A DNA stretch of 44,443 nucleotides. It comes from a virus. Location of the stretch: UHGV virus genome UHGV-0035288; one strand, written 5' to 3'. The notes below the pieces were generated by a model, which was not told the origin of the DNA, searched no databases, and worked only from the letters and a program-made list of their open reading frames with translations. A program made the position numbers and the translations under genes. This document shows, one piece after another, positions 11,010-43,744 of this stretch (positions are counted from its first letter, which is position 1; the number at the start of each line of letters is the position of its first letter).

Positions 11010-11605
11010 CTTACGAATCCAATAGCAGTCTTAAGGGTGGCGGATACGGTTGCCGTTAGGTGTCCGTTGTCCGTGTACGACAAGCTCGAACGCTCGACCA
11101 CGAATAAACCTGTTTCGCCATCCGGCGCGGTGACGACAAACGGCTTGACGAAGTGCCCGCGAAGGAAGTTGTAAACCAGTTTAGGGTTGCACCACTTGTC
11201 CGTAGTCAGCCCGACGAATTGCACGGGGAACTGTTTCGTTTCGGCGTTCGGGCCGTCCGCGATGTTCTGTCCGTAGCCATTACCAAATTGCAATTCCTCG
11301 GACCGGAAAGCTAACTGCACGTCGCCACCGCCCTGCAATTGCATGTGCCAGTAATAGGGCCATTCGTTTGATCGCGGGTCGTGTGCTTCGATTAGCTCAT
11401 ATGCCGCACCGGATTTCGTCGGACCGGCCCAGTTATCTTTCAGTGTAATGACCGTGTTCGAGTTGAATGCTGCAATTTTGCCGGTGTAGTCGTTGCCGTC
11501 GATGCGGGTGAATACGCGTACCTTCCCGATCTCGCTAAGGAACGCCGTTCCCGCGCCCGTAACGGTCTTACTCCCCTTAGTTAAAGTGATTGTACCTTGT
11601 GACAT
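11006..11605 (-). CDS. minor tail protein (M position)
   Basis: 199 aa between tape measure and L-like gene; N-terminus MSQGTITLTKGSKTVTGAGTAF resembles the fiber N-terminal motif. Confidence 0.55.
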   Translation of the reverse strand: MSQGTITLTKGSKTVTGAGTAFLSEIGKVRVFTRIDGNDYTGKIAAFNSNTVITLKDNWAGPTKSGAAYELIEAHDPRSNEWPYYWHMQLQGGGDVQLAFRSEELQFGNGYGQNIADGPNAETKQFPVQFVGLTTDKWCNPKLVYNFLRGHFVKPFVVTAPDGETGLFVVERSSLSYTDNGHLTATVSATLKTAIGFVR

Positions 11606-11641: not shown

Positions 11642-14284
11642 TCATCGTTTGTAAAGTACACCACCCGGTTTCGTCGCCTTCACGATCTCGGCCTTCACCG
11701 CCTCGGTGATTTGCTTGCCGAACGCCTGCGCGGTACGGGGGTCTGGCCCGCTGACACTGGTATCCGTTTTACCCGCCCCCGTGTAAACGTTAGTCGTCAC
11801 GACCATACCACCGCCTGCGCCCGACGCGGCAACGCCCAATTTCCCGTCCGGCCCGCGCTTCAATGGCATGATGGCCTCGGGTCCGGCCTCCCCCATCAAT
11901 CCAGCGCCTTTAGCGAACGCCTGGACGCCATAACTGAAAAAGGTGGGCTGGCTTACCACTTTCCCCGAATAGGCCGCGAGATTGCCGCCTGTGTACGCTC
12001 CGCCGTCCGCATTCTTAGTGAGGCCAGAGAAGATAGCGCCGAACAATCCGTTTTTGCCGCCGTCGCCACCGAAAGCGCTAACGATGGACTTGAACGCCTG
12101 CGAGGTAGCCAGCTTGATTAGTTCGCTCAGGATGGATTTAACCATATCCTTTGCGTTCAGCTTGCCAGTCTCGAAAAACTCGTTCATCGTGTCTTGCATA
12201 GCGCTGAATGTGAATTTCGTGAGCGACGCCATCTGCGTATATCCGTTACCCATTTCATCCACGCTATCTTTAAGACCGCGGCTGAAGCCATCCCATAGCG
12301 AGGCGTTAGCGCCGGTCTGCGCCTCCTGCACTTCGCGCAACTTAGACACCGCCTTGTCGATATCGGTATCGCTAGCGCCAACCCGTTTCAGGCGATCAAT
12401 TAGCTGCAATTCTTCACGTAGGTTTGCCGCTTCGCGAGTGGAAAGCGCATACCCAGCGGCGGTGGCTTTTAGTTCGGCGTTCTGGTTCTTAACGAAGGCA
12501 TCGATCTGCGCGTGCGCCTTAACCTGCTTCTCTTTCGCGTCCAGCAATTTGGCTTCTTCGACGATCTGCTCGCGCACTTCCTTCACGCGTCCGAATTCGA
12601 CCATCTGCTGCTTTTCTGCTGCCGTTAGCGCTCTTTCTTTGCTCGCAGCGATTAACTGCTCATTGTCGGCGATCAGCTTGTTTAAGGCCGCTTGAGCGCG
12701 TTGCGTGCGGGTCTGCGTAGATGCGTTGGCTTCGATCTGCTTGCCGGATTCTCGAAGCTGGGCCAGTTCGCTCCGTGCGACTTCCAGCATTTTCATACCG
12801 GCATCCACGCGAACAGCCGCGGCCTTCTTCGGGGCGGGGTCTTTGTAGCGCTCGTTGACCTGCTTAACCGCCTCGGCTAGTTCTTTCTCATCAATAACGC
12901 CGCGCTTATTCAGCAAATTGAGGCGGGCGATCTCGTCGGCGCGCTTCTTAGCGTTGGTGGCGTATTCCTTCTCGAACGCGGCGCGGTCACGGGCAGTGCG
13001 GTTGGCCTCCTCGTTCGCCTTTGCGGATTCGTCTGCGGCGCGGGCGTTGTCTCGCTCCGCACGGTTACGCAGGGTGAGCGACGCCACCACTTTTTCCTGG
13101 GCGACCAGTTCGCTGTAAAGCATGTTAATACGTGCTTTCTGCGCTTCAGTCATTACCCCACCGGCAGCGTTTACCGCTTTCATCTCGGCATAATAAGCCG
13201 TGGTCATGCGCTGCAATGACTCACGCGCTTTCATCTCGGACTCATTGGAGGACTGCGCGCGGCCCACGTCCAGGATTGCATCCCACATAGATTTAGCTGC
13301 CGATGTGACGACGTTCATCGACCGCTCAAGCGTACCCATGTTGGACTTGATTTCATTGGTCATGCTGGTGAACGACGCAGCGGCTGTTTTGTTAGCCAAC
13401 GCAACTGCGTCTGTCTCACGACCCGCATCAACGAGCGACTGTACCTGCTGGATCTGCGCTTCGTTTACGACGTGATACTTATCCGCCAGCGCACGCAGTC
13501 CGCCAACGGGGTCGGTTGACAGCTTTGCCACAGCCGCTACCACATCCTCGATCGGCTGGCTGGACACCTTCGCGAAGTCATTCACTACCTTAGCCAATGC
13601 GCCGAAGTCACCACCCGCTTTCACACCTGCCGCCGCCAGCGCCTGGATTGTGTCACGCGTCTTGCGAAAGGACCCGCCCATGCGCTCGGCGTTCTCGGAC
13701 AGCACCAGGATCTGGTTAGCGGTGAGGCCGGAGATATTACCAGACAGCGCCAGCGTCTTGTTAAGCGCTGCCACCTGGTTCTCTGCTCGGGACGTAATTG
13801 CCACGCCCACGCCTAAAGTCGCCGTTACAGCGGTGAGGCCGATCCCTACGGGGCCGAGGAAGCCCGCAACATACCGAAGCGTGTTACCCAGTCCGCCAAA
13901 TGCGCCGGTTAGCTGTGGTAACTGCTGAAGCATGACGCGGTGCACCGGCATACCCATCTCAAGCGTAACCGCGATATCCTGTAACTGGAATGCGGCGTTA
14001 CGCGAGGCAAAGCCCAAGTTTTTTGTCGACATGCCTAATCGGCTGGCGAGTCGCTCCTGTTTCGTCATGCCGTCGGCGGCGCGCTGCGATTCAGTCGCTA
14101 ACTTTTCCATTCCGCCCGCGGCGTCGCCAGTAACCTTTTTCGACTTGCCGAGGGTGTCGTTTAATTTCTTTACTTTCTGTTCTGTGTTCTCGGATTTCTG
14201 CGCAAATGTGTCCAGCACAGTATTAGCCGTTTTAATTTGCGCGACGTCCGCCTTTAGCGTGATGCCCGCTGCCTGATCTGCCAT
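11642..14284 (-). CDS. tail tape measure protein
   Basis: 880-aa Ala/Lys/Glu-rich coiled-coil ORF with Gly-rich C-terminal region; ATG at 14284; lies between the GT position and the tip genes. Confidence 0.85.
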   Translation of the reverse strand: MADQAAGITLKADVAQIKTANTVLDTFAQKSENTEQKVKKLNDTLGKSKKVTGDAAGGMEKLATESQRAADGMTKQERLASRLGMSTKNLGFASRNAAFQLQDIAVTLEMGMPVHRVMLQQLPQLTGAFGGLGNTLRYVAGFLGPVGIGLTAVTATLGVGVAITSRAENQVAALNKTLALSGNISGLTANQILVLSENAERMGGSFRKTRDTIQALAAAGVKAGGDFGALAKVVNDFAKVSSQPIEDVVAAVAKLSTDPVGGLRALADKYHVVNEAQIQQVQSLVDAGRETDAVALANKTAAASFTSMTNEIKSNMGTLERSMNVVTSAAKSMWDAILDVGRAQSSNESEMKARESLQRMTTAYYAEMKAVNAAGGVMTEAQKARINMLYSELVAQEKVVASLTLRNRAERDNARAADESAKANEEANRTARDRAAFEKEYATNAKKRADEIARLNLLNKRGVIDEKELAEAVKQVNERYKDPAPKKAAAVRVDAGMKMLEVARSELAQLRESGKQIEANASTQTRTQRAQAALNKLIADNEQLIAASKERALTAAEKQQMVEFGRVKEVREQIVEEAKLLDAKEKQVKAHAQIDAFVKNQNAELKATAAGYALSTREAANLREELQLIDRLKRVGASDTDIDKAVSKLREVQEAQTGANASLWDGFSRGLKDSVDEMGNGYTQMASLTKFTFSAMQDTMNEFFETGKLNAKDMVKSILSELIKLATSQAFKSIVSAFGGDGGKNGLFGAIFSGLTKNADGGAYTGGNLAAYSGKVVSQPTFFSYGVQAFAKGAGLMGEAGPEAIMPLKRGPDGKLGVAASGAGGGMVVTTNVYTGAGKTDTSVSGPDPRTAQAFGKQITEAVKAEIVKATKPGGVLYKR

Positions 14285-14349
14285 TATGCAGTCCCCCTTT
14301 TTATGCAGTTGCCGTCGGTCATTGTATCAGCGAATTTAAAACAAACCTT

Positions 14350-14664
14350 ATTCAGTCTCAGACGAGGGGGGCCATTGACCCCCGTCTAGTCTGAAAGACT
14401 GGGGTGCTGTCCCGCTGTCCCGATCGGCTAAAACCCGCGGCAGCACTGGAGGGGACGGGGTGCTGTCCCGATCTGTCCCGCCTCATTCTGTCCCGCTTTT
14501 TGTCCCGCTTACTTTATGCACTAAAACTGCATAGACATTCACATTTTGGGGGTGGGACAGATCGGGACAGCACCCCTGTCCCGCTTTTAATCTATGCAAT
14601 GTAAGTGGGTAAATATGCAGTTTTAGAGGTGCGGGACAAAACGGGACGTCCCGCCTGTCCCGCT
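14350..14664. repeat. iteron-rich element, copy 1 (hairpin plus at least 13 GTCCCG-core repeats in both orientations)
   Basis: TGTCCCG(C/A) at 14408, 14416, 14464, 14474, 14489, 14501, 14577, 14656; GTCCCGC at 14648; inverted GGGACA/CGGGACA at 14554, 14563, 14632, 14642. Conserved hairpin CAGTCTCAGACGAGGGGGG...CCCCCGTCTAGTCTGAAAGACTGG at 14353-14402. About 70% of this block is repeated at 31188-31366. Confidence 0.8.
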
Positions 14665-14667
14665 TCG

Positions 14668-15344
14668 TTATGCGGGGTTCTGCCGCGCCATTTCATCCAG
14701 CGCAACGCGTTCCATTAGCTTGATATCTTTAAACGCACGTTGCGCGTTTTCGATGCCGTGCATCTTAAATAGCCATTCCAGTACGCCGTAGTCGATGCCG
14801 TATGCGCCGCCGAATCCGGTACGCCATTGCGTGGCGCAATCGGTGAAGACTGCGACTATCTTCGCATTGTCGGGCCATATCGCAACAGGCGGACAAACAT
14901 CTTCGGGGGCCGCACCCCATAAACTTGCGGCTAAATCTTCGGAGGGTGGCGGCGGGCCATAAAAGCGTCGCGCCGCCTCAATTAGTTTTTTTCACGCAGT
15001 CCCATCAGTTCGAGATAGTACGAAGTGTGGAACACGCCGAACGCGCGCGGATAGTTGACCACCAGGCGGCGGACGTTCTCCGCGTTAAATTCGTCCGGCA
15101 GATTCCAGCCTTCTGCGACGTGCATGATGGCCTCGACCATAACGTTAAAGCCTTCCGGGTCGTTGTCGTCGTATTCCGACAGCTTGCGCTCCGTGTCCTG
15201 CATGGTCTGCGAAAATTCGTCGATCGGACGGTGGCGCACGGTAAACGTCATTTTGCCCGGTTCGTTTTCGCCTGGGCGCGGGATCTCAATCGGCAGCTTA
15301 AAAGTAGGCTTAGGGTCAAGTGTAAAGAGTGGTGCTTTAGCCAT
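14668..15344 (-). CDS. tail assembly chaperone GT-like fusion made by programmed -1 ribosomal frameshift
   Basis: Slippery heptamer A_AAA_AAC (minus strand, 14991-14985) at the last codons of G; the -1 frame then stays open for 105 codons (LIEAARRFYGPPPPSEDL...DEMARQNPA) to TAA at 14668-14670. Confidence 0.6.
14982..15344 (-). CDS. tail assembly chaperone G-like
   Basis: Track ORF begins at TTG 15359; ATG at 15344 has GGAGA SD. 120 aa ending ...GLREKN; immediately downstream of major tail gene. Confidence 0.7.
   Translation of the reverse strand: MAKAPLFTLDPKPTFKLPIEIPRPGENEPGKMTFTVRHRPIDEFSQTMQDTERKLSEYDDNDPEGFNVMVEAIMHVAEGWNLPDEFNAENVRRLVVNYPRAFGVFHTSYYLELMGLREKN
14985..14991 (-). other. 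-1 frameshift slippery site A_AAA_AAC
   Basis: Plus strand GTTTTTT at 14985-14991, in frame X_XXY_YYZ relative to G. Confidence 0.6.
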
Positions 15345-15360
15345 TGTAGTATTCTCCAAT

Positions 15361-15383
15361 AAAAAAGGGGCCGTGCTGGCCCC
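15361..15383 (-). terminator. rho-independent terminator after major tail protein gene
   Basis: GGGGCC-GTGCT-GGCCCC hairpin with T6 on minus strand, directly upstream of G RBS. Confidence 0.6.
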
Positions 15384-15413
15384 ATATTAACACCCGCTAT
15401 TTAAGCGACCAAA

Positions 15414-16139
15414 TTACGACAGCGCCTCAACCAAGTCCTTACGGTAAATAACCATATCGGATTGCATGGTCAGAGTGGACTCCACCGTCTCCACGTTGTT
15501 TACTTCAGCCGACGGAATCTTCTGGAAAGACACCTTAGCCGGGTAAATGCGGATCTCACCTTTGCCGCTTGCCGCTGCCGGGTTAGTGAACTTAATCACA
15601 GTGGTTTTCTGTGTGTCGTCCAGGTCTTCCAGAATCGGGCGGATCGGGTCTTCTTCGTCGTGGGTGAAAGTGTAGGTCTGGACCAACGGGTTTTTCGTGG
15701 TATTCAGACTGATCGCAGTATTCACCTGCAACGGCTGGAAGGTAGTAGTCTGCTGGTCGCCACCAGACACGGCGACGTTAGTGATAAACGGGAAGTCGAT
15801 AAAGCTCGACACCTTCACCACCTCGCCTGGTGTGCCTACGCCGAAAGCACCGGTAGGATATTTGGTAACGTCCGAGGTGTCGAAGCGCGCCAGTGTAACG
15901 TCGTTAGTCGCCACTTTACCCACGATAAACGCGCGGTTCAGCGCACGGACCCACGGGGCTTTAGTGAACATAACCACGTCACCAACTTGCAGGCCATGAG
16001 AAGCCGCGCAGGTGATAACGCACCCTTTCGTAAGATCAGAGATCGACGCGGCGGCGTTGGTAGCTGCCGTAACAGCGATGCCGTTGCCCAGTACGGACCC
16101 AATCTGGACGCTGGACCCGTTAGGAAGTTGATAACCCAT
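15414..16139 (-). CDS. major tail protein
   Basis: 241 aa; ATG at 16139 with AGGAG SD; upstream of G/GT and followed by a terminator, as expected for the most abundant tail subunit. Confidence 0.7.
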   Translation of the reverse strand: MGYQLPNGSSVQIGSVLGNGIAVTAATNAAASISDLTKGCVITCAASHGLQVGDVVMFTKAPWVRALNRAFIVGKVATNDVTLARFDTSDVTKYPTGAFGVGTPGEVVKVSSFIDFPFITNVAVSGGDQQTTTFQPLQVNTAISLNTTKNPLVQTYTFTHDEEDPIRPILEDLDDTQKTTVIKFTNPAAASGKGEIRIYPAKVSFQKIPSAEVNNVETVESTLTMQSDMVIYRKDLVEALS

Positions 16140-20218: not shown

Positions 20219-20258
20219 CGCTTGCAATCCTTGTATTGGTTGCAATATATTGGTTGCA
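20219..20258 (+). promoter_or_regulatory. promoter region with two tandem TTGGTTGCA motifs upstream of moron
   Basis: TTGGTTGCA at 20236-20244 and 20250-20258; TTGCAA/TATATT hexamers; followed by CACCAACAACGAGGAC leader shared with region 30971-31000. Confidence 0.5.
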
Positions 20259-20280
20259 CACCAACAACGAGGACACAAAA

Positions 20281-21045
20281 ATGAGACTGACCAAAGGCAT
20301 TAAAAACCAGATTCTGGCTAACATTCTGCGCGACCACGAAATCGCTACCGAAGCCAAATCAATCATGACGGACTCGCGCGACCTGGCGTATGACATTACG
20401 TTGCACTGTATGCCGGTGGGCATTCATACGTTCGCCGAACTATTCGCACACATTGAAGCAATCAACGATGACCCGTCGCAGATGTACGGCGTCTGCGTAT
20501 ACACCAACAAGGCGACGTATAGTTATAACACCGACCGCCCCAAAGGTATTGGCAGCGTTTACGACGCCACTTTCGAAATCAACGCAGGCGGTAACGTTCG
20601 CACCTTGTCATTGAGCGGCGATGGGCACCGATACCGAGTACATCGCGGATACTGGGAGTATAAATACATGAATAAGCTATCTCCCGATCTCGGCGATATC
20701 GTACCGGGGTTCGAGGAAGTTATGTTGGCTTCGGTGTGTGAAGTGGACGAGGACGGAAAATCGCTTCCGATCTATAAGCCACGCTGCCGTGCTGATTTCC
20801 CGGCGGATCATGACTTCTGTAAGCGCTTGGACCGTAACGACCAGGCCCGCCGCGAATTGCGTGCGAAGTATGACGCATTCAAGTTGACCGTTACCGGTGT
20901 GCTTGACCTGCACAATACTGACAAGAAGCTGATTAAGGCATGGCCTGAAGTTGAGCAATTCATCCCTTACCCGGACAAGCCAAAATCCACGGCGGTGGCG
21001 CTGGATGTGAAAACTCTCAACGAGATTTGCGGTATTCCGCGCTAA
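20281..21045 (+). CDS. hypothetical protein encoded by a moron inside the structural module
   Basis: GAGGA SD then ATG 20281; 254 aa; opposite strand to all neighbours, own promoter motif and own terminator. Confidence 0.6.
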   Translation: MRLTKGIKNQILANILRDHEIATEAKSIMTDSRDLAYDITLHCMPVGIHTFAELFAHIEAINDDPSQMYGVCVYTNKATYSYNTDRPKGIGSVYDATFEINAGGNVRTLSLSGDGHRYRVHRGYWEYKYMNKLSPDLGDIVPGFEEVMLASVCEVDEDGKSLPIYKPRCRADFPADHDFCKRLDRNDQARRELRAKYDAFKLTVTGVLDLHNTDKKLIKAWPEVEQFIPYPDKPKSTAVALDVKTLNEICGIPR

Positions 21046-21046
21046 C

Positions 21047-21079
21047 GAAAAAGGGGCCATTACGGCCCCTTAATTATTT
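21047..21079. terminator. bidirectional terminator
   Basis: GGGGCC-ATTAC-GGCCCC hairpin (21053-21069) with A5 before and TTAATTATTT after; between convergent moron and spanin genes. Confidence 0.6.
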
Positions 21080-30991: not shown

Positions 30992-31031
30992 TGCAACCAA
31001 TATAGCAGGGTGCTGGAGTGGGTGCAACCAA
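30992..31031 (-). promoter_or_regulatory. promoter region with two TTGGTTGCA motifs (minus orientation)
   Basis: TGCAACCAA on plus at 30992-31000 and 31023-31031; same leader (TTGGTTGCACACCAACA..GAGGAC) as upstream of 20281. Confidence 0.5.
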
Positions 31032-31182
31032 TATTAATCACGCGCATGAAAAAGTTGATCGCTATCTGCTGTAACTGCAAACTGCATTTTTCACCCACCA
31101 TTCTGCAACGCGCATTGGTTGCCTAGTTCATCGACGACCGCAATTCGCATCTTGTTGCCGTGCGTTATGCAATCCCGGATTT

Positions 31183-31370
31183 TATGCAGTCTCAGACGAG
31201 GGGGGTGCCAGACCCCCCGTCTAGTCTGAAAGACTGGGGTGCTGTCCCGCTGTCCCGCTCCTCGCCAGGCCGCGTCATCCGGGGCGGGACGGGGGTGCTG
31301 TCCCGCTTTGTCCCGCCCCTGGTCTGTCCCGCTTTTTGTCCCGCTTACTTTATGCAGTTTTATTGCATAA
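31183..31370. repeat. iteron-rich element, copy 2
   Basis: Same hairpin (31188-31237) and TGTCCCGC repeats (31243, 31251, 31299, 31309, 31325, 31337; inverted GCGGGAC at 31284) as 14353-14520; in 480-bp intergenic gap downstream of primase-helicase. Confidence 0.8.
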
Positions 31371-31450
31371 CTATGCATTATACTCACACTACACGGCAAC
31401 CAACACGACCGACTAAAAGCACGCAAAATGGCAACCAATGCGCGCAAAAT

Positions 31451-33715
31451 TTAATCTTTTAAATCGTCATCGGTCGCTAAAAGCGTGATAGGGATATCCG
31501 ATTTGATGACCAAATTAGACGACCCATAGATGGCCCCGGTGTGTGGATCGGTGTAAAAACCTATCACTCCTCGCTCCACCATATCGTCGATTGCCTTCGT
31601 CGAAGTGCCACCTTTTGCCAGCCCAGCCTGGCGGACAATTGCCGATTTACTGAATCCAGTATGGTCCGGGTTATCTTCCATCAGTTTTTCCAGTGCCGCA
31701 TAAAGCACTTTCTCTTTTTCGTTGCGCGGTCCGGCGGTGTTCTCTTCCTTAACCGCGGCCTTGCCTGCCGCCTTCGCCTGTTCAATAGCGAACGGTGCCA
31801 GGGCAACCGGTACGAGGTAGAGAGTCTCGTCGCGTGGCGTGGAGGCAATCGGCTTGACGTCCCAACCGGCAACCACGTCACCGAAGTCTGGCCCGGTGCT
31901 GGTGGACTGGTGCGCCTCGAACGCCTCAGATTTGCGGAGATCCACCTTCACCTTGCACTTGAGCAGGACGAAGCCGCGCGGCGCTTGCTTGATGCCGTTA
32001 CGTGACTTCTCATGATACAGGTTCAATTGTCCGGGCTGGTTGTCGTCCGGCTGTTCCAGGAAGAACGCAGAATCGACAGCACCATGCAGCGCGCCGGACC
32101 CGCGTGGCGTTCTGCTGCCGTTTGCACCTTTAGCCGGGTGGTGGATGACGCCCGCACTGCCACCTGTATTTTCCGCGATGGCCTTCAGCGCTTTGACCAC
32201 TTCACCCATATCGCTGGCGTTGTTCTCGTCGAACGGTTTAGCCTCGGCGGACCGCAACGCAACAGTCTGGTTGAGTGAGTCGAACGCCACCAGGCCAACC
32301 GGTTCGCCATTAGCGGTGCGGTTGATAAAGCTGATAACTTCGCGCAAGCCCGATTTGCTGGTGATATCCCAGCCGCGTGACTGCAGATCGATAATGTGCA
32401 GCTTGTCCAGGTCGTGCTCATATTTAATCTGCAATGCTTCTTTACGCTGGTTGGAGGCTTCGCCACCTTCCGCGTCGAAATAGAAGCAATGAGACTGGAC
32501 GACCTTCGCACCGCCAAACGGAATACCCGCGGCAACCGCGCCCATCTGGCCCAGCACGTAGAAAGACTTACCGATATTCGACTCACCCGCCATGTACCAG
32601 GTCGATTTAAAGTTAATCAACCCCTCGATAATCGGGTCGTGCTTACTGAACAGCGCAACCGGCTCGTTATCCAGATCCGCATCGGTGCACCCGCCATATT
32701 CTTCGCCGTCGCCAACCGCATCAACAATATGTTCATATAAGGATTCGACTTCCTCGTCGTCCAGCCCCGGAAGGATGGCGGCGATTTGCTTACGGGACAT
32801 ATTGTGTGGCTCGACGTTCAGGTGGTCCGGTATCCCGATGAGACGTAGCGCCAGGTGCTGGTGTCTATTTAGCTCCGAGCAACACTCGTTGCCGGTGTGC
32901 ATACACTTGAAACGGATCTCGCCATCCTTAACCATGATAGCCGTCGACCCTTCGCCGCTGTGCAGATGTTCGTTCGGGCACGGCACTTCATAGCCCCGCC
33001 CGGAAGATAACTCCTCGAATCCTGCCTGGAAGCACCAGTCCAGAATGCCGTCTGCCACTGCGTCGTCGCCCTGGGTCAGTTCGCGGCGAACTTCCTCCTT
33101 CTCCACGCCCAACTTATCCGCCAGGCGGAGCAGACGACGGACGCGGGCGCGCTTGCCATAGTGGCACTTAATAACAGACTGCTGGTGTGGCAGGTACATC
33201 AGGCGGTTCGTGTCTTTCGTGCAATCGTCGAAGTCCACATCTGACAGACCCAGTTGGTGTAATAGTGCATACTGGACGCGGCCCAGGTCTTCTGCCGGTA
33301 CAGGCTTGTCCGTGAGCACCAGGAAACGGGCGCAACGCGTGCCGCCTTTCAGCGGGTGGCGGTCGCCGGTTGTGGTGTGAAAGACGTGCTCCAGTCCCGC
33401 GTCGATGAACGCCTTACGGCAGCGGCGTAGGGTGCGGGTGTCGGTACGGTCTATATCGAAGAACAGGATCGAGCGGTCCACCGCACTGGTCTTACGACGC
33501 AATCCGTCACTGGTATATGCCACGATGCCGTCGGCCTTACGCTTGCGGCGCGCATACTCGGCTTTATCTTCCGTTTTGTTGATATGCACCGAGGAGATTT
33601 CTTTCGCATCATTGATAAATTCGAAAAACTCTTCGGTAGTCATCTGGAAGTTTTCCGCCCTGGCTTTTTCGCCTTTTTTAGCGGGTCTTGTTACAGCGAA
33701 TTTAATTAAGCTCAT
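31451..33715 (-). CDS. DNA primase-helicase (N-terminal primase-polymerase-like domain, C-terminal P-loop helicase)
   Basis: 754 aa; Walker A-like GESNIGKS in C-terminal half, acidic and Cys/His-containing N-terminal half; ATG 33715. Confidence 0.75.
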   Translation of the reverse strand: MSLIKFAVTRPAKKGEKARAENFQMTTEEFFEFINDAKEISSVHINKTEDKAEYARRKRKADGIVAYTSDGLRRKTSAVDRSILFFDIDRTDTRTLRRCRKAFIDAGLEHVFHTTTGDRHPLKGGTRCARFLVLTDKPVPAEDLGRVQYALLHQLGLSDVDFDDCTKDTNRLMYLPHQQSVIKCHYGKRARVRRLLRLADKLGVEKEEVRRELTQGDDAVADGILDWCFQAGFEELSSGRGYEVPCPNEHLHSGEGSTAIMVKDGEIRFKCMHTGNECCSELNRHQHLALRLIGIPDHLNVEPHNMSRKQIAAILPGLDDEEVESLYEHIVDAVGDGEEYGGCTDADLDNEPVALFSKHDPIIEGLINFKSTWYMAGESNIGKSFYVLGQMGAVAAGIPFGGAKVVQSHCFYFDAEGGEASNQRKEALQIKYEHDLDKLHIIDLQSRGWDITSKSGLREVISFINRTANGEPVGLVAFDSLNQTVALRSAEAKPFDENNASDMGEVVKALKAIAENTGGSAGVIHHPAKGANGSRTPRGSGALHGAVDSAFFLEQPDDNQPGQLNLYHEKSRNGIKQAPRGFVLLKCKVKVDLRKSEAFEAHQSTSTGPDFGDVVAGWDVKPIASTPRDETLYLVPVALAPFAIEQAKAAGKAAVKEENTAGPRNEKEKVLYAALEKLMEDNPDHTGFSKSAIVRQAGLAKGGTSTKAIDDMVERGVIGFYTDPHTGAIYGSSNLVIKSDIPITLLATDDDLKD

Positions 33716-33725
33716 TGCCGTGGCC

Positions 33726-34055
33726 TTACTTAGAAGTTTTATTATTGCGTACCCAGGAGCGCACTGTGCTCTGATTAATTCCGGTCAACTCGGCAATCAT
33801 CGCCCAGGATTTGCCCTCGGCGCGCAAACGGATAACCTGCTTTTTGTATTCTTCCATTTCTTCATTGTGCTTTTGCAGCTTGCTGGCTGCCGTACCGTTG
33901 AGCAATTCCAGCCTGGCGCGTAATTCTTTTTCTACACTGCGCAGGCGCTCTACCTCAAATAGCACCGCCCCAACGGCATCGGTATAAGCCCATGACCGGC
34001 TTGTTTCACTGCTAACAGTCTTCGTTAACATTTCGATTGCGTCGTCGATATTCAT
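33726..34055 (-). CDS. HTH DNA-binding regulator
   Basis: 109 aa; C-terminal helix-turn-helix (SWAMIAELTGINQSTVRSWV); GAGGG SD; first gene of leftward transcription from divergent control region. Confidence 0.55.
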   Translation of the reverse strand: MNIDDAIEMLTKTVSSETSRSWAYTDAVGAVLFEVERLRSVEKELRARLELLNGTAASKLQKHNEEMEEYKKQVIRLRAEGKSWAMIAELTGINQSTVRSWVRNNKTSK

Positions 34056-34458: not shown

Positions 34459-34974
34459 ATGTTTGAACAAATCGTAAACCTGATTACTCGCGGCGTAGTA
34501 GCACTGGAAACCATCGCTAAGCATTATGAAACCGTTGGCGCTGCCGTTGGTAAGCAGGAAGACAAGAAGCCGTCTAAGGTGAAAAAAGAAGTCGTAGAAG
34601 ATGACGACGATGAAACCGAAGACGAAAAACCGGCGAAAACCAAAAAATCCACAGCGAAAGGCAAGGCCAAAAAAGAAGTCGTAGAAGATGACGACGATGA
34701 AGCCGAAGACGAAAAACCAGCGAAGGGTAAAAAAGCTCCGGCGAAAGGCAAAGGCAAGAAAGATGCCGATCCGCTGGCGGAGATGCGCGACGAAATCAAA
34801 CAATATGCCGCTATTATCGCTGGTGGTGACGACGACGACGCGAACGACGAATTTGACGACCTGCTGGAATCGTTCGAGATCAAATCAATCGCCAAGCTGG
34901 AAGATGAAGACGTCGAAGACTTCCACAAAGATCTTAAAGAAATCGTCGAAACTTATTTCGAACTGGAAGATTAA
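34459..34974 (+). CDS. highly acidic tandem-repeat protein (first early gene)
   Basis: GGAGA SD then ATG 34459; 171 aa; duplicated block KEVVEDDDDE(T/A)EDEKPAK (DNA repeat at about 34584-34634 and 34668-34718); strongly acidic overall. Confidence 0.6.
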   Translation: MFEQIVNLITRGVVALETIAKHYETVGAAVGKQEDKKPSKVKKEVVEDDDDETEDEKPAKTKKSTAKGKAKKEVVEDDDDEAEDEKPAKGKKAPAKGKGKKDADPLAEMRDEIKQYAAIIAGGDDDDANDEFDDLLESFEIKSIAKLEDEDVEDFHKDLKEIVETYFELED

Positions 34975-37128: not shown

Positions 37129-37153
37129 CCGCTTAGGCGCAACCAAGTAGATT
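37125..37153 (+). promoter_or_regulatory. sigma70-like promoter (TTGACC-17-TAGATT) with GCAACCAAG motifs
   Basis: -35 at 37125-37130, -10 at 37148-37153; GCAACCAAG at 37137-37147 and 37154-37163. Confidence 0.5.
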
Positions 37154-37218
37154 AGCAACCAAGCCGAACGGGGTGGCTTCCAATAACCCCGATACATGTG
37201 AAAATGAGGAATTGGAAA

Positions 37219-37998
37219 ATGGCTAAAGTCAACCTGAAAAATGTGCGTGTATGTTTCCTTAAAATTTGGGAACGTGATACCCCTAAACAGGATGGACAAA
37301 AACCGGCATACCGCGCCGTGATTCTTCTTGATAAAGAAGATCCGCAGGTGGACAAAGTGGAAGCGGCAGCGCGCGCAGTGCTCACCGACAAGCTGAAATC
37401 CGAGAAGAATGCCGATAAGTGGATGGACCGCCACTACGCCCAGGATTCTAAGGAATGCGCAGTCCGCGACGGTGACGAGCGCGACGAAGTAACCGAAGAA
37501 TTCGAAGGCATGTTGTACATCAACGCTAAATCGTTCAAACAGCCGAACATCCAAACGTCACTGGGCGAGAAGCAGACCGAGCAAGGTCTGACCGTAGAAG
37601 GCGACGAGATCGAAGGCCAGGAAATCTATTCCGGTTGTTATTGCAACGTGTCACTGGATATTTGGGCGTGGAACAACACCAACGGTAAGGGACTCGGTGC
37701 TGGTCTTTTGGGTCTGCGATTCCGCGTCGACGGCGAAGCCTTCGGCGGTGGCGGGTCTTCTTGCTCGGACGAGGACCTGGGCGACGATGACGAAGATGAA
37801 AGCCCGCGCAAGTCCAAAAAGTCAAAACGTCGTGATGACGATGATGAAGACGACAAGCCGCGCAAGTCCAAAAAGTCCAAGCGCCGCGATGACGACGACG
37901 ATGATGAAACACCTCGCAAACGTCGTAAGCCACGCGATGACGAAGATGAGGACGACGACGACGAAGACAAAGCACCGCGTAAACGTCGCCGCCGTTAA
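37219..37998 (+). CDS. single-stranded DNA-binding protein (DUF2815-like) with Lys/Arg-Asp/Glu repeat tail
   Basis: Track start is GTG 37198; ATG 37219 has GAGGA SD. N-terminus MAKVNLKNVRV typical of this SSB family; C-terminal 90 aa are alternating basic/acidic repeats (PRKSKKSKRRDDDDEDD x2, ending KRRRR). Confidence 0.6.
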   Translation: MAKVNLKNVRVCFLKIWERDTPKQDGQKPAYRAVILLDKEDPQVDKVEAAARAVLTDKLKSEKNADKWMDRHYAQDSKECAVRDGDERDEVTEEFEGMLYINAKSFKQPNIQTSLGEKQTEQGLTVEGDEIEGQEIYSGCYCNVSLDIWAWNNTNGKGLGAGLLGLRFRVDGEAFGGGGSSCSDEDLGDDDEDESPRKSKKSKRRDDDDEDDKPRKSKKSKRRDDDDDDETPRKRRKPRDDEDEDDDDEDKAPRKRRRR

Positions 37999-38227: not shown

Positions 38228-40515
38228 AAGACTTCGAACGCCTTTTTCTCGATACCGAGACATTTAGCGGGGTGGACCTGAAGAAAGTGGGCGCATACGC
38301 CTACGCAGAACACCCAACAACCGAGATTATGATTTGCACGTACGCCATAGACGAGGGCCGCGTGCAGACATGGGATTGCACCGAGTCCCCAACAATGCCG
38401 CGTGAACTGCGCAAGGCGCTCCGCCAGGTATCCCGCAAGAAAGCAAAAATAGTGATGGCTAACGGCCTCCTGTTTGACCGCCTGGTTATTCGCGAGAAGT
38501 GGGGCATTGACCTGCCGGTAGGCCAGATCGAGGATACCATGATTATGGCCTTTCGCCACGCGCTGCCGGGTAGCCTCGATATGCAGTGCCAGGTGTTGGG
38601 CGTCGACGCAGAGCACGCGAAGGATAAGGCGGGCAAGGCGCTGATCAAACGATTCTGTAAGCCAACCCCCAAGACCTACAAAATCCGCCGCTACACGCGC
38701 GAGACGCACCCCGAGGAGTGGGCTAAATTCCTGCGCTATGCCGCACTGGATATTATAGCGATGAGGGAAGTCTATTGGCGCATACCGGACTGGGGTAACA
38801 CGCCGAAGGAAGATGAAATCCTGCTTATTGACCAGTTGATCAACGACCGCGGCTTCTATGTGGACGTTGACCTGGCGAACGCCGCGATCAAAGCGGTGCA
38901 GGCGCATAAGGAAGAATTGAAGGAAGAAGCATGGGAGCGCTTCGGCGGTAAGCTGACAGGCAATGACTTCCTGCCAGCGCTGCGCGACCTGGCGCCTGCG
39001 TTCACAATCCACAACGCGCAGAAATCCACGCTTAACGACCTGCTGGAAGACCCGGACTTCCCCGACGAGGGCAAAGTGCTTATCGAGATGCGCCTCGGTG
39101 CGTCATCAACGGCATCGACTAAGTACAATCCGCTCGTTAATGGCTTATCCGCAGATGGTCGCCGTCGTGGGTGTCTCCAGTATGGCGGGGCGAAACGCAC
39201 GCTACGCTGGGCGGGCAAAGGCTTCCAGCCGCAAAACCTGGCACGCGGCGAGTATAGCGACGACCACGAAGGGAAGATTAAGCGCCGTGAAGGCGAGAGC
39301 GACGTTTCTTTTTGGGTCCGGTCGCACATGCTCACCAACGGCATCAACTCCCTGTTACGCGGGACAGCGCACTGGGCGTATGACATATCGAAGTTAACGG
39401 CCTCGACCGTTCGCGGGTGCATTATCCCGGCTAAGGGCAAGAAGTTTGTTGTAGCTGACTATTCTAACGTGGAAGGTCGCGGGCTTGCCTGGATCGCTGG
39501 TGAGAAAACCGCGCTAATGGTGTTTAGGGCGGGTCGCGATATCTATTGTGAAACTGCCGGTAAGATGTTTGGCCTCGACCCGGAATACATCAAAGCCAAC
39601 CGCAAAGACTTACGCCAGATTGGTAAGGCGTGCGAATTGGGGCTGGGTTATGGTGGCGGCGTTGCGGCGTTCCTGCAGTTTGCTAAAAACCTGGGCCTCG
39701 ACCTGTATGCGATGGCGGACGTCATGAAGGGCACATTCCCCGATCATATTTGGGCAGCGGCGAAACGGGGCTATGAATACGCCCGCATTAACGAAGCTAA
39801 GCGCCCGCCGAAGCCTGGCAAGAAAGACGAGCGCCCAACTTACATACTGCCGAAAAACGTGTGGTTGACGTGTGACGCGATCAAACGTATGTGGCGTGAG
39901 GCCCACCCGAAGACGGTAGCCTTTTGGGCAGAGCTTGAGGACGCGGTGTTGTGCGCAATCCGCAATCCGGGCAAAGCATACTGGGCTGGCGCGAACGTTC
40001 GCCCGGATGGTAAGAAAGCGCTCAAGATAGTCCGCACGAAGGCGAAGCATGACCCAACCTTCGACGAGGAGCGCGACGACCCGAACGCCGCAGGGTGGTG
40101 GTTGAAAATTGAGTTGCCGTCAGGGCGCATCATGAGCTATCCGGGCATTGCGCTGTCTGTCACTACCGAGATCGACGAAGATACCGGCAAGAAACGCACC
40201 AGCACCCGCATCAAATACCAGGGCGAGAATCAGACGACGCGCCAGTGGGGCTTCCAGTATACCTACGGCGGCAAACTGACGGAAAACATCGTGCAGGCGC
40301 TGTGTCGCGATATCCTCGCGTGGTCCATGCCTGGCGTTGAAGCCGCGGGGTATGAAATAGTCTTATCAGTGCACGATGAATTGATCACCGAAGTTCCGGA
40401 TACTGACGACTACACTACCGAGGAATTGTGCTCGCTGATGTGTGACCTGCCGATTTGGGCGAAAGGCTTCCCGCTTGCTGCGGAAGGCGACATTATGTAC
40501 AGGTACAGGAAATAA
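38224..40515 (+). CDS. DNA polymerase, family A, with N-terminal 3'-5' exonuclease domain
   Basis: 763 aa; GAGGA SD; Exo I motif FLDTETFSG near N-terminus; polymerase motif C SVHDELITEV near C-terminus. Confidence 0.9.
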   Translation: MKDFERLFLDTETFSGVDLKKVGAYAYAEHPTTEIMICTYAIDEGRVQTWDCTESPTMPRELRKALRQVSRKKAKIVMANGLLFDRLVIREKWGIDLPVGQIEDTMIMAFRHALPGSLDMQCQVLGVDAEHAKDKAGKALIKRFCKPTPKTYKIRRYTRETHPEEWAKFLRYAALDIIAMREVYWRIPDWGNTPKEDEILLIDQLINDRGFYVDVDLANAAIKAVQAHKEELKEEAWERFGGKLTGNDFLPALRDLAPAFTIHNAQKSTLNDLLEDPDFPDEGKVLIEMRLGASSTASTKYNPLVNGLSADGRRRGCLQYGGAKRTLRWAGKGFQPQNLARGEYSDDHEGKIKRREGESDVSFWVRSHMLTNGINSLLRGTAHWAYDISKLTASTVRGCIIPAKGKKFVVADYSNVEGRGLAWIAGEKTALMVFRAGRDIYCETAGKMFGLDPEYIKANRKDLRQIGKACELGLGYGGGVAAFLQFAKNLGLDLYAMADVMKGTFPDHIWAAAKRGYEYARINEAKRPPKPGKKDERPTYILPKNVWLTCDAIKRMWREAHPKTVAFWAELEDAVLCAIRNPGKAYWAGANVRPDGKKALKIVRTKAKHDPTFDEERDDPNAAGWWLKIELPSGRIMSYPGIALSVTTEIDEDTGKKRTSTRIKYQGENQTTRQWGFQYTYGGKLTENIVQALCRDILAWSMPGVEAAGYEIVLSVHDELITEVPDTDDYTTEELCSLMCDLPIWAKGFPLAAEGDIMYRYRK

Positions 40516-40793
40516 TGACACCAGAAGGCAAGATTCAAAGTCACCTGATGCGACGGGTGAAAGAGGTAGGCGGATTCTGCCGCAAAATGGCATGGGAGGG
40601 GCGCGCGGGTGCGCCCGATCTGATTATCATCATCAACGGCAAAATAGTGTTCGTCGAAGTGAAGCGCCCGGGCGGAAAACCGAAGCCACACCAGGTACGC
40701 GAGCATGAGCGGATGGCCCGCCGCGGTGCGGACGTTCGCGTCATAGACAACATCGCCTACTGTGATTTATTGGTTGCTGAATTGGTCGCATAG
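40515..40793 (+). CDS. VRR-NUC domain nuclease
   Basis: ATG 40515 overlaps polymerase stop (TAATG), AGGA SD; 92 aa; PD-(D/E)XK core PDLIIIINGKIVFVEVKRPGGKP...QVREHERM. Confidence 0.65.
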   Translation: MTPEGKIQSHLMRRVKEVGGFCRKMAWEGRAGAPDLIIIINGKIVFVEVKRPGGKPKPHQVREHERMARRGADVRVIDNIAYCDLLVAELVA

Positions 40794-43710: not shown

Positions 43711-43715
43711 ATTGG

Positions 43716-43744
43716 TTGCATAATCATATTGGTTGCATTATATT
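43716..43744 (+). promoter_or_regulatory. sigma70-like promoter (TTGCAT-17-TATATT) built from two tandem ATTGGTTGCA motifs
   Basis: Motifs at 43712-43720 and 43729-43737; -35 at 43716-43721, -10 at 43739-43744. Confidence 0.55.

Follow-up and report, generated by a model that had tools for sequence, protein, structure and literature searches.

We analyzed a 383-bp non-coding block in UHGV-0035288, a virus genome of 44,443 nucleotides (the window) that belongs to Dhillonvirus, virulent coliphages of the HK578/SSL-2009a/SO-1 type. The block, referred to as region A herein (14285..14667, minus strand), lies between the stop codon of the tail assembly chaperone GT and the start codon of the tape-measure gene and is built of short repeats (iterons) and a hairpin. 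We consider it probable that region A is an origin-type module bound by the phage initiator, and that it is a duplicated and enlarged copy of region B (31154..31377, minus strand), the module next to the primase-helicase gene. Region B is most likely the ancestral module and the phage origin, a reading that follows from the repeats, their conservation, the co-variation of the repeat word with a predicted winged helix of the primase-helicase, and a layout matching those of Staphylococcus aureus pathogenicity islands (SaPIs) and P4. A first-pass annotation of the window had proposed that region A is a protein-binding array such as a replication origin or a partition-like site, rather than a gene junction. 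The invariant repeat cores, the lineage-specific words and the winged-helix co-variation support an array of the replication-origin type; we found no evidence for a partition function of the arrays.

Organization of region A

Region A comprises a core module (14308-14533) and two additional units of ∼79 bp (14534-14667), each of which combines an AT-rich box segment with three or four repeats in mixed orientation (repeat family at 14549-14586 and 14628-14665). On the sense (minus) strand, an iteron quartet with two direct and two inverted cores, GCGGGACAGGCGGGACGTCCCGTTTTGTCCCGC, stands just past the GT stop (14631..14663, minus strand). It is followed by an AT-rich spacer with two TATGCA boxes (14585..14630, no strand assigned; boxes at 14593-14598 and 14614-14619) and by an iteron triplet of two inverted cores and one direct core (14552..14584, minus strand), which is the right arm of a 26-nt inverted repeat. 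A second AT-rich spacer (14509..14551, no strand assigned) carries the palindromic box TTATGCA-N6-TGCATA (14514-14533) and is a candidate unwinding or second-factor site; both AT-rich spacers have direct and inverted cores on their flanks. The main iteron array (14451..14508, minus strand) contains four direct copies of GCGGGACA on the sense strand and an inverted GTCCCC variant, its plus-strand GTCCCG cores starting at 14465, 14475, 14490 and 14502 with spacings of 10, 15 and 12. Beside the hairpin are two neighboring direct iterons (14408..14423, minus strand). The block continues with the composite hairpin itself (14353..14401, no strand assigned), the octamer ACGGCAAC as the closing element of the module and a copy of a genome-wide polar octamer (14308..14315, minus strand), and two ACTGCATAA boxes around the Shine-Dalgarno sequence and ATG (14284..14282) of the tape-measure gene (14284..14307, minus strand).

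Twelve exact copies of GTCCCG occur in 14409-14662, nine in one orientation and three in the other, where ∼0.16 would be expected in 254 bp. Over the whole window the word is close to expectation (33 observed versus 28.6 expected), and 19 of the 33 copies fall in two clusters. The earlier count of at least 13 cores in both orientations therefore holds for the clustering and the orientations, while the number itself resolves into 12 exact copies plus a GTCCCA variant (14552-14559) and a GTCCCC variant near 14452; counted as cores, region A has 13 and region B has 7. The TTATGCA-type boxes had likewise been placed correctly, with exact TTATGCA at 14284, 14301 and 14514 and TATGCA at 14593 and 14614. 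The TTATGCA at 14514 forms a palindrome with an inverted TGCATA at 14528. TGCATA/TATGCA boxes occur 33 times in the window, six of them in the region A block and five in the region B block. We rejected a reading of TTATGCA as a DnaA box since conservation is limited to TTATGCA and does not extend to the CACA end of the consensus.

The bulged hairpin predicted from the first reading spans 14353-14401. It consists of a 5-nt word X (AGTCT), its complement X′ (AGACT), a G-run/C-run stem and a distal X′, which on the sense strand reads AGTCT-TTC-AGACT, stem, second AGACT. Compared with shuffled sequence, the gap as a whole has a much stronger tendency to fold, with z-scores of -8.1 and -7.5 on the two strands, owing to its inverted repeats.

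Only ORFs (open reading frames) of 32-66 aa lie within the gap, across the repeats, and the small ORFs annotated there are not the same from record to record. Among 15 related phages, 14285-14667 contains 1-nt indels and no conserved reading frame, in agreement with the earlier statement that no credible ORF is present. The indels and the inconsistent annotation speak against a protein-coding gene in the gap.

Conservation of the block in Dhillonvirus

Comparison with related phages, proposed in the first-pass annotation as a check, found the 383-bp gap at a coverage of at least 80% in 151 of the 159 phage records that a 1-kb query around the gap had matched at 80-96% identity. To follow the block within the genus, we compared 15 distinct Dhillonvirus copies of each of the two regions. 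Iteron cores were invariant and spacers varied; in some phages the first core had moved by 1-2 nt with the core itself intact. The hairpin stem was unchanging and its loop variable, and the 26-nt inverted repeat (14457-14482 with 14551-14576) was restricted to the lineage of the window. Invariant cores, drifting spacers and a lineage-limited inverted repeat imply selection on the short word and not on a single long RNA structure. Within the palindromic box element (31350-31370 and 14514-14533), the spacer that separates the inverted TTATGCA/TGCATAA arms reads GTTTTAT or ATAAAAC depending on the Dhillonvirus, and from these sequences the whole palindromic box element appears to have flipped between phages.

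Region B and the module in other lineages

The second copy reported 16.8 kb away, by the primase-helicase gene, was borne out as a match of ∼190 bp at 31182-31370 with 82-89% identity. Both copies have the same orientation and are 16,834-16,836 bp apart. Region B lies in a 480-bp gap past the primase-helicase stop at 31451 and starts no more than ∼75 bp from that stop. It is made of palindromic boxes (31350-31377), five iterons (31284-31344), an iteron pair (31243-31258), a hairpin (31187-31236), two TGCATAA boxes (31165-31189) and an octamer (31154-31161, minus strand), and has seven GTCCCG in 100 bp. The order common to both copies on the sense strand is TGCATA boxes in an AT-rich stretch, four direct GCGGGACA repeats at 10-16 bp spacing, an inverted copy, a variable GC-rich spacer, two adjacent direct repeats, the composite hairpin, more TGCATAA boxes and the octamer ACGGCAAC. 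The existence of both regions is already known: the GenBank record of Sodalis phage SO-1 (NC_013600) flags the same two loci as "region A" (11214-11597) and "region B" (40178-40657), annotated as direct, inverted and palindromic repeats with mutual similarity between the regions and mention of a possible function. We found no published analysis of the binder, lineage words, distribution or function of these repeats, and our literature search returned nothing on the repeats, a Dhillonvirus origin or the octamer. To our knowledge, neither Dhillonvirus nor Kagunavirus phages have a defined origin.

We then gathered relatives of the primase-helicase with 37-69% identity, including Kagunavirus St162 and metagenomic lineages. 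An ordered module stands right after the primase-helicase stop in HK578, L139, L238, L239, L146, L147/L244, L151, St162/GRNsp27 and L231/L233; in total it does so in at least 10 lineages besides the window. Its order across lineages is boxes, three or four direct repeats, inverted repeats, a GC spacer, two repeats, the composite hairpin and ACGGCARC. TTATGCA-type boxes and ACGGCARC are common to all of these lineages and the repeat words are not: the word is CGGGACA in Dhillonvirus, L139 and L238, GTGTGGCA in L239, CCGACA in L146, GGGATAA in L147 and L244, GGGGATG in L151, GGGGGAGA in Kagunavirus St162 and GRNsp27, and CGGACAA in L231 and L233. Looser arrangements with other words (TTGCGAG, GGGATC) were seen in L240-L243. 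A pattern search of IMG/VR gave mostly chance matches with a 14-mer and five loci with a gapped pattern.

The hairpin follows the same rule of changing words and constant layout. In ten modules from six word lineages, a 5-nt X is followed 3-5 nt downstream by its exact complement and by an imperfect G-rich/C-rich stem, and the complement of X occurs again ∼35-40 nt further on in nine of the ten. Five X words are in use (AGTCT, TCATC, TCCTC, TCTCC and CTCCT) and the hairpin topology is kept. For each module the fold is a single long composite hairpin or a set of alternative small ones (z of -2 to -4.6). These words were compared directly, as MAFFT/RNAalifold on the divergent lineages lost structural register and recovered the apex stem alone. 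Judged by its sequence, the composite hairpin is a conserved nucleic acid structure, one that single-stranded DNA, a cruciform or RNA would fit alike.

While the primase-adjacent copy is widespread, the tail-operon copy is limited to Dhillonvirus and its sister clades. Kagunavirus St162 has a single cluster of its own word and an uninterrupted chaperone/tape-measure junction. In the sister clades, whose chaperones are 61-66% identical, a complete module lies directly upstream of the tape-measure start, with the repeat word CGGGAC[A/G] in L245 and L246 and GTGTGCCAA in L247; these modules keep the AGTCT/AGACT hairpin and a CGGCAAC. The clade's own word in region A implies that the block is maintained and co-evolving; the agreement of the region A and B words within one genome refers to the CGGGACA clade. 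The block would therefore travel with the upstream side of the tape-measure gene, its word changing by clade, and by these comparisons region A is not a recent accident. Hence the earlier description of the block as inserted is correct in that the tail-operon copy is clade-limited and absent from St162, yet the block is also of long standing and conserved in its position upstream of the tape-measure gene in several of the clades.

The repeat word co-varies with the C terminus of the primase-helicase

The primase-helicase gene (31451..33715, minus strand) encodes 754 aa with an AAA_25/RepA-type helicase at residues 357-531 and a predicted winged helix at about residues 666-737 (nt 31505-31720, minus strand). 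A natural swap between St162 and L233 bears on which protein reads the repeats. The primase-helicases of these two phages are 97-100% identical over residues 1-665, but identity falls to 35-47% in the last ∼100 residues. At the DNA level, similarity is lost from the codon where the proteins diverge through the repeats and is back at the shared boxes, so that the repeat word co-varies with the C-terminal segment, which models as a winged helix. The Cro-like helix-turn-helix (HTH) proteins of the pair are identical at 72 of 73 residues despite the different repeat words. HK578 shows the complementary arrangement, with a diverged N-terminal primase domain and the same C terminus and repeat word as the window.

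Two further features of this protein were observed. A sharp mosaic boundary separates the first ∼190 residues (33150-33715), where HK578 differs by 20-70%, from the remainder, which is ∼100% identical. Between the N-terminal primase region and the AAA_25 core (alignment columns ∼278-328) lies a conserved Cys/His cluster (CPNH...H...C-x-H-x-H-C...H-Q-H), a probable zinc-binding element and a candidate template-recognition module.

Proposed mechanism and evidence against it

In the mechanism that we propose, the C-terminal winged helix of the primase-helicase would bind the GCGGGACA repeats, direct and inverted, and multimers would build on the arrays flanking the AT-rich TGCATA-box spacers. The duplex could then melt at these spacers and the RepA-type helicase ring load itself. 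The composite hairpin and the ACGGCAAC octamer might provide a structured single-strand signal or the first priming site for the fused primase. Region B would be the ancestral origin. For region A there are two possible roles, a second origin within the late operon or an auxiliary site that acts in cis by capturing, looping or titrating the initiator.

Several observations weigh against this assignment. In SaPI/P4-style iteron origins the repeats directly follow the initiator gene; region B does so and region A, 16.8 kb away, does not. No module was found after the primase-helicase gene in K1H, EcoPhCCP1 and Jerseyvirus Ent1, nor in six IMG/VR contigs (L142-L145, L148 and L149) whose proteins are 43-45% identical. 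The winged helix is a generic fold, and we detected no specific similarity of the primase-helicase to P4 alpha or SaPI Rep; the best match in a PDB sequence search was RSF1010 RepA, a weak one (E = 0.5), with no P4 alpha, and the C-terminal 199 aa alone retrieved no homologues, whereas the full-length query did. Between the window, L238 and L239, divergence of the winged-helix segment is about the same with and without a common repeat word, which makes this comparison non-discriminating. In the St162/L233 swap, an ORF of 76-80 aa upstream of the primase-helicase is non-homologous as well and is a possible alternative iteron binder in those phages; Dhillonviruses are without such an ORF. GC skew tracks gene orientation, reaching its minimum near 34 kb at the divergent promoter, and marks neither block. 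Transcription in the sense direction passes through both blocks, which contain strong hairpins, so a role at the level of RNA or transcription is possible. Lastly, our literature search found no Dhillonvirus for which replication starts or protein binding had been mapped.

Alternative explanations

The main rival is a transcription or RNA leader that controls the downstream operon via termination, pausing or antitermination hairpins, with a logic like that of the HK022 put RNA pairs. Its targets would be the tape-measure and tail tip genes after region A, and the small, lysis and structural genes after region B. In its favor, each copy is located immediately before the first gene of a long operon and is read in the sense direction, TGCATAA boxes stand on both sides of the tape-measure ribosome-binding site, and the composite hairpin is kept through compensating changes. 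Also in its favor is the annotation, in the HK578 record, of a rho-independent terminator after GT on the stretch matching 14631..14663, together with the terminator-like hairpins detected in the gap; the latter are on the antisense strand only and are formed by iteron pairs. In the sister clades, sites of the 8-mer TTGGTTGC (see below) between reverse-strand genes and the module may mark a promoter reading through the module into the tape-measure gene. Yet the conserved hairpin of the window is followed by TGAGACTGAATAAGG and by no 3′ U-run, our scan found no sigma-70-type promoter in either gap, and Kagunavirus-like phages have a separate canonical promoter after the module, so the module is not that promoter. 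An Rfam scan of the whole window gave no match at the gathering threshold, and the long inverted repeat is not conserved. A leader also leaves unexplained the lineage-specific words in both directions and their link to the winged helix; words that change together with that segment indicate recognition of DNA by a protein. We therefore judge an RNA leader unlikely.

An operator or partition-like array would instead be bound by a small phage DNA-binding protein, the HTH_23 protein (33726-34055) or another, for regulation, segregation or condensation, with no part in replication initiation. The HTH gene shares its operon with the primase-helicase, a second site family (TTGGTTGC, 18 copies) flanks region B, and the small ORF that differs in the St162/L233 swap could encode such a protein. 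However, the reading helix of HTH_23 is 90-95% identical in L239, which has another repeat word and keeps TTGGTTGC. This conservation across the word change led us to reject HTH_23 as the iteron binder and fits TTGGTTGC better; the near identity of the Cro-like protein across such a change argues the same way. With no ParA/ParB-type gene in the annotated maps and no indication of a plasmid-prophage stage in a virulent phage, we find this explanation improbable. A selfish or neutral repeat, that is, a functionless duplicated miniature element or a recombination scar at a tolerant junction, would account for two copies per genome, for the inverted box spacer and for the foreign reverse-strand genes taken up at the sister-clade GT/tape-measure junction. 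Against it stand a position and internal order kept across clades whose chaperones are only ∼60% identical, cores invariant amid variable spacers, and a word that tracks clade in region A as in region B. Terminal inverted repeats and target-site duplications are also absent, and we give this reading little credence.

Comparison with known replication systems

The layout of an origin-type module resembles that of SaPIs, in which the C-terminal winged helix of Rep recognizes 6-12 short iterons immediately downstream of rep, with opposite orientations around an AT-rich centre; iterons and winged helix are element-specific, and in SaPI5 primase and Rep are fused (PMC9371898). In the phage, too, iterons follow a helicase/initiator ORF and flank an AT-rich centre, and the protein has a predicted C-terminal winged helix. 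The two systems differ in that Rep is an MCM-like AAA+ 3′-5′ helicase whereas the phage core is of the AAA_25/RepA type, that the phage module adds a composite hairpin, an octamer and a second distant copy, and in host and kind of element, here a virulent coliphage. No sequence similarity was detected between them.

In satellite phage P4, the alpha protein binds octamer type-I iterons in ori and in a distant, cis-required crr, which consists of two direct ∼120-bp repeats with inverted iterons and resembles the two 79-bp units of region A. The primase, helicase and C-terminal winged-helix DNA-binding domains of P4 alpha are in one polypeptide (PMC2777425), the same domain order as in the phage protein. 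The oriV of the IncQ plasmid RSF1010 is described as combining iterons, an AT-rich segment and hairpin ssi signals used by the plasmid primase (PMC8567376). Here the likeness is in the helicase family, AAA_25, to which the weak RepA match also points. In RSF1010, however, iteron binding, helicase and primase are divided among three proteins (RepA, RepB′ and RepC) that are apparently fused in the phage, and the ssi hairpins form an inverted pair on opposite strands. The virulent Bacillus siphovirus SPP1 has two initiator-binding repeat regions far apart, one in the replication cluster and one among late genes. This arrangement (oriL/oriR) parallels regions B and A. Initiation at oriL has been noted (PMC5737612). 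SPP1 differs in that its initiator G38P is unrelated in sequence and is a separate origin-binding protein recruiting helicase loader and helicase, and that oriL is inside the initiator gene.

If the assignment is correct, it provides a testable pairing of a ∼75-residue winged helix with a 7-8-bp word, and at least nine natural specificity variants for initiator/origin co-evolution. A conserved module that breaks the tight GT/tape-measure junction also raises the question of whether late operons host origins, and of how replication and late transcription coexist there. Dhillonvirus and Kagunavirus are common in Escherichia coli and Salmonella phage collections and in studies of defense systems. 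HK578 mutants that escape the OLD system map to the primase-helicase and its promoter (bioRxiv 10.64898/2026.07.10.737580).

Genomic context of the blocks

In the NHEP3 and SO-1 maps, one long operon runs through the HTH gene, primase-helicase, small genes, lysis, terminase, head, tail, G/GT, tape measure and tail tip, and a shorter divergent arm carries the DNA polymerase, single-stranded DNA-binding protein, exonuclease and helicase genes. Within the tail segment of the window, the major tail protein gene (16139..15414, minus strand) is followed by an intrinsic terminator found by terminator scan (15383..15367, minus strand). Near-identical intrinsic-terminator hairpins (AAAAAAGGGGCC....GGCCCC) occur at 2373-2397, 15360-15389 and 21044-21069, after the major tail gene and two other cluster ends. 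Tail assembly chaperone G (15344..14985, minus strand) matches Pfam Phage_TAC_4 (E = 9e-24). Near its end, at ∼14990, is the slippery run GAAAAAAAC, from which, as read from the sequence, the -1 frame continues as the T extension to a TAA at 14670..14668 (G+T span 14668..15344, minus strand). The tape-measure gene (14284..11642, minus strand; 880 aa) was taken from the ORF list and annotated relatives. The ORF and frameshift readings together agree with the boundaries originally given, a GT stop at 14668 and a tape-measure start at 14284 with 383 bp between them. The iteron block accounts for the spurious small ORFs and the "terminator" that gene callers place in this gap.

The sister clades have TTGGTTGC sites and one or two genes on the reverse strand (57-126 aa) between GT and the module, at 10674-11504 in L245, 10674-11817 in L246 and 9614-10143 in L247. 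The genes of these three inserts gave no Pfam match. The GT/tape-measure junction would therefore be a recurrent insertion site for foreign genes.

The octamer and other repeated sequences

No 8-mer family is more frequent in the window than ACGGCARC, which has 50 copies versus 4.5 ± 2.1 expected, and its members ACGGCAAC and ACGGCAGC are the two commonest 8-mers. Forty of the 50 copies are on the minus strand; the ratio is 33:3 for the late-gene arm, compared with 7:7 for the replication-gene arm. The octamer is found in each of the three reading frames as well as outside ORFs. In SO-1 the octamer is intact at 28 of 35 aligned sites, compared with 53% expected from flank identity, and it is also enriched in Kagunavirus St162. 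Each module is closed by a copy (14308-14315 and 31154-31161, both minus strand), and region B has a plus-strand copy on its other flank (31393-31400). The octamer is not the E. coli Chi sequence and may be a primase/helicase signal or another polar signal. We rejected its strand switch as a marker of fork direction since its significance in the window (p = 1.6e-4) cannot be separated from gene orientation, and in St162 it was not significant (p = 0.15).

A more ambitious scheme would be sequence-programmed replication, in which the fused primase-helicase loads itself at two modules splitting the 44-kb genome and then uses ACGGCARC as a priming or orientation signal. The octamer would then be met about once per 0.9 kb on the strand tracked by a 5′-3′ helicase moving co-directionally with late transcription. 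We hold this scheme to be rather doubtful. If true, the genome itself would specify where lagging strands are primed and which way forks move, and the module in the tail operon would couple late-gene dosage or expression to replication.

A further 8-mer, TTGGTTGC, has 18 copies versus ∼1.4 expected from a simple count, often as intergenic pairs. Its sites are at 1191-1211, 4141, 9604, 20236-20266, 30439, 30993-31031, 31115, 31396-31438, 34245, 37139-37162, 40770 and 43712-43736. One group overlaps a promoter-like TTGCAC-17-TATATT with two TTGGTTGCA sites (31031-30984, minus strand), read from the sequence downstream of region B and assigned to the next operon. Kagunavirus-like phages have TTGGCTGC at the equivalent places. 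TTGGTTGC is likely an operator for the small HTH protein (HTH_23/sigma-70 region-4-like; 33726..34055, minus strand); the reading helix of this protein is conserved wherever the motif persists. Finally, tandem in-frame repeats of 87 bp (34576-34749) and 54 bp (37783-37890) encode acidic, lysine-rich (D/E/K) stretches in genes of the replication arm.

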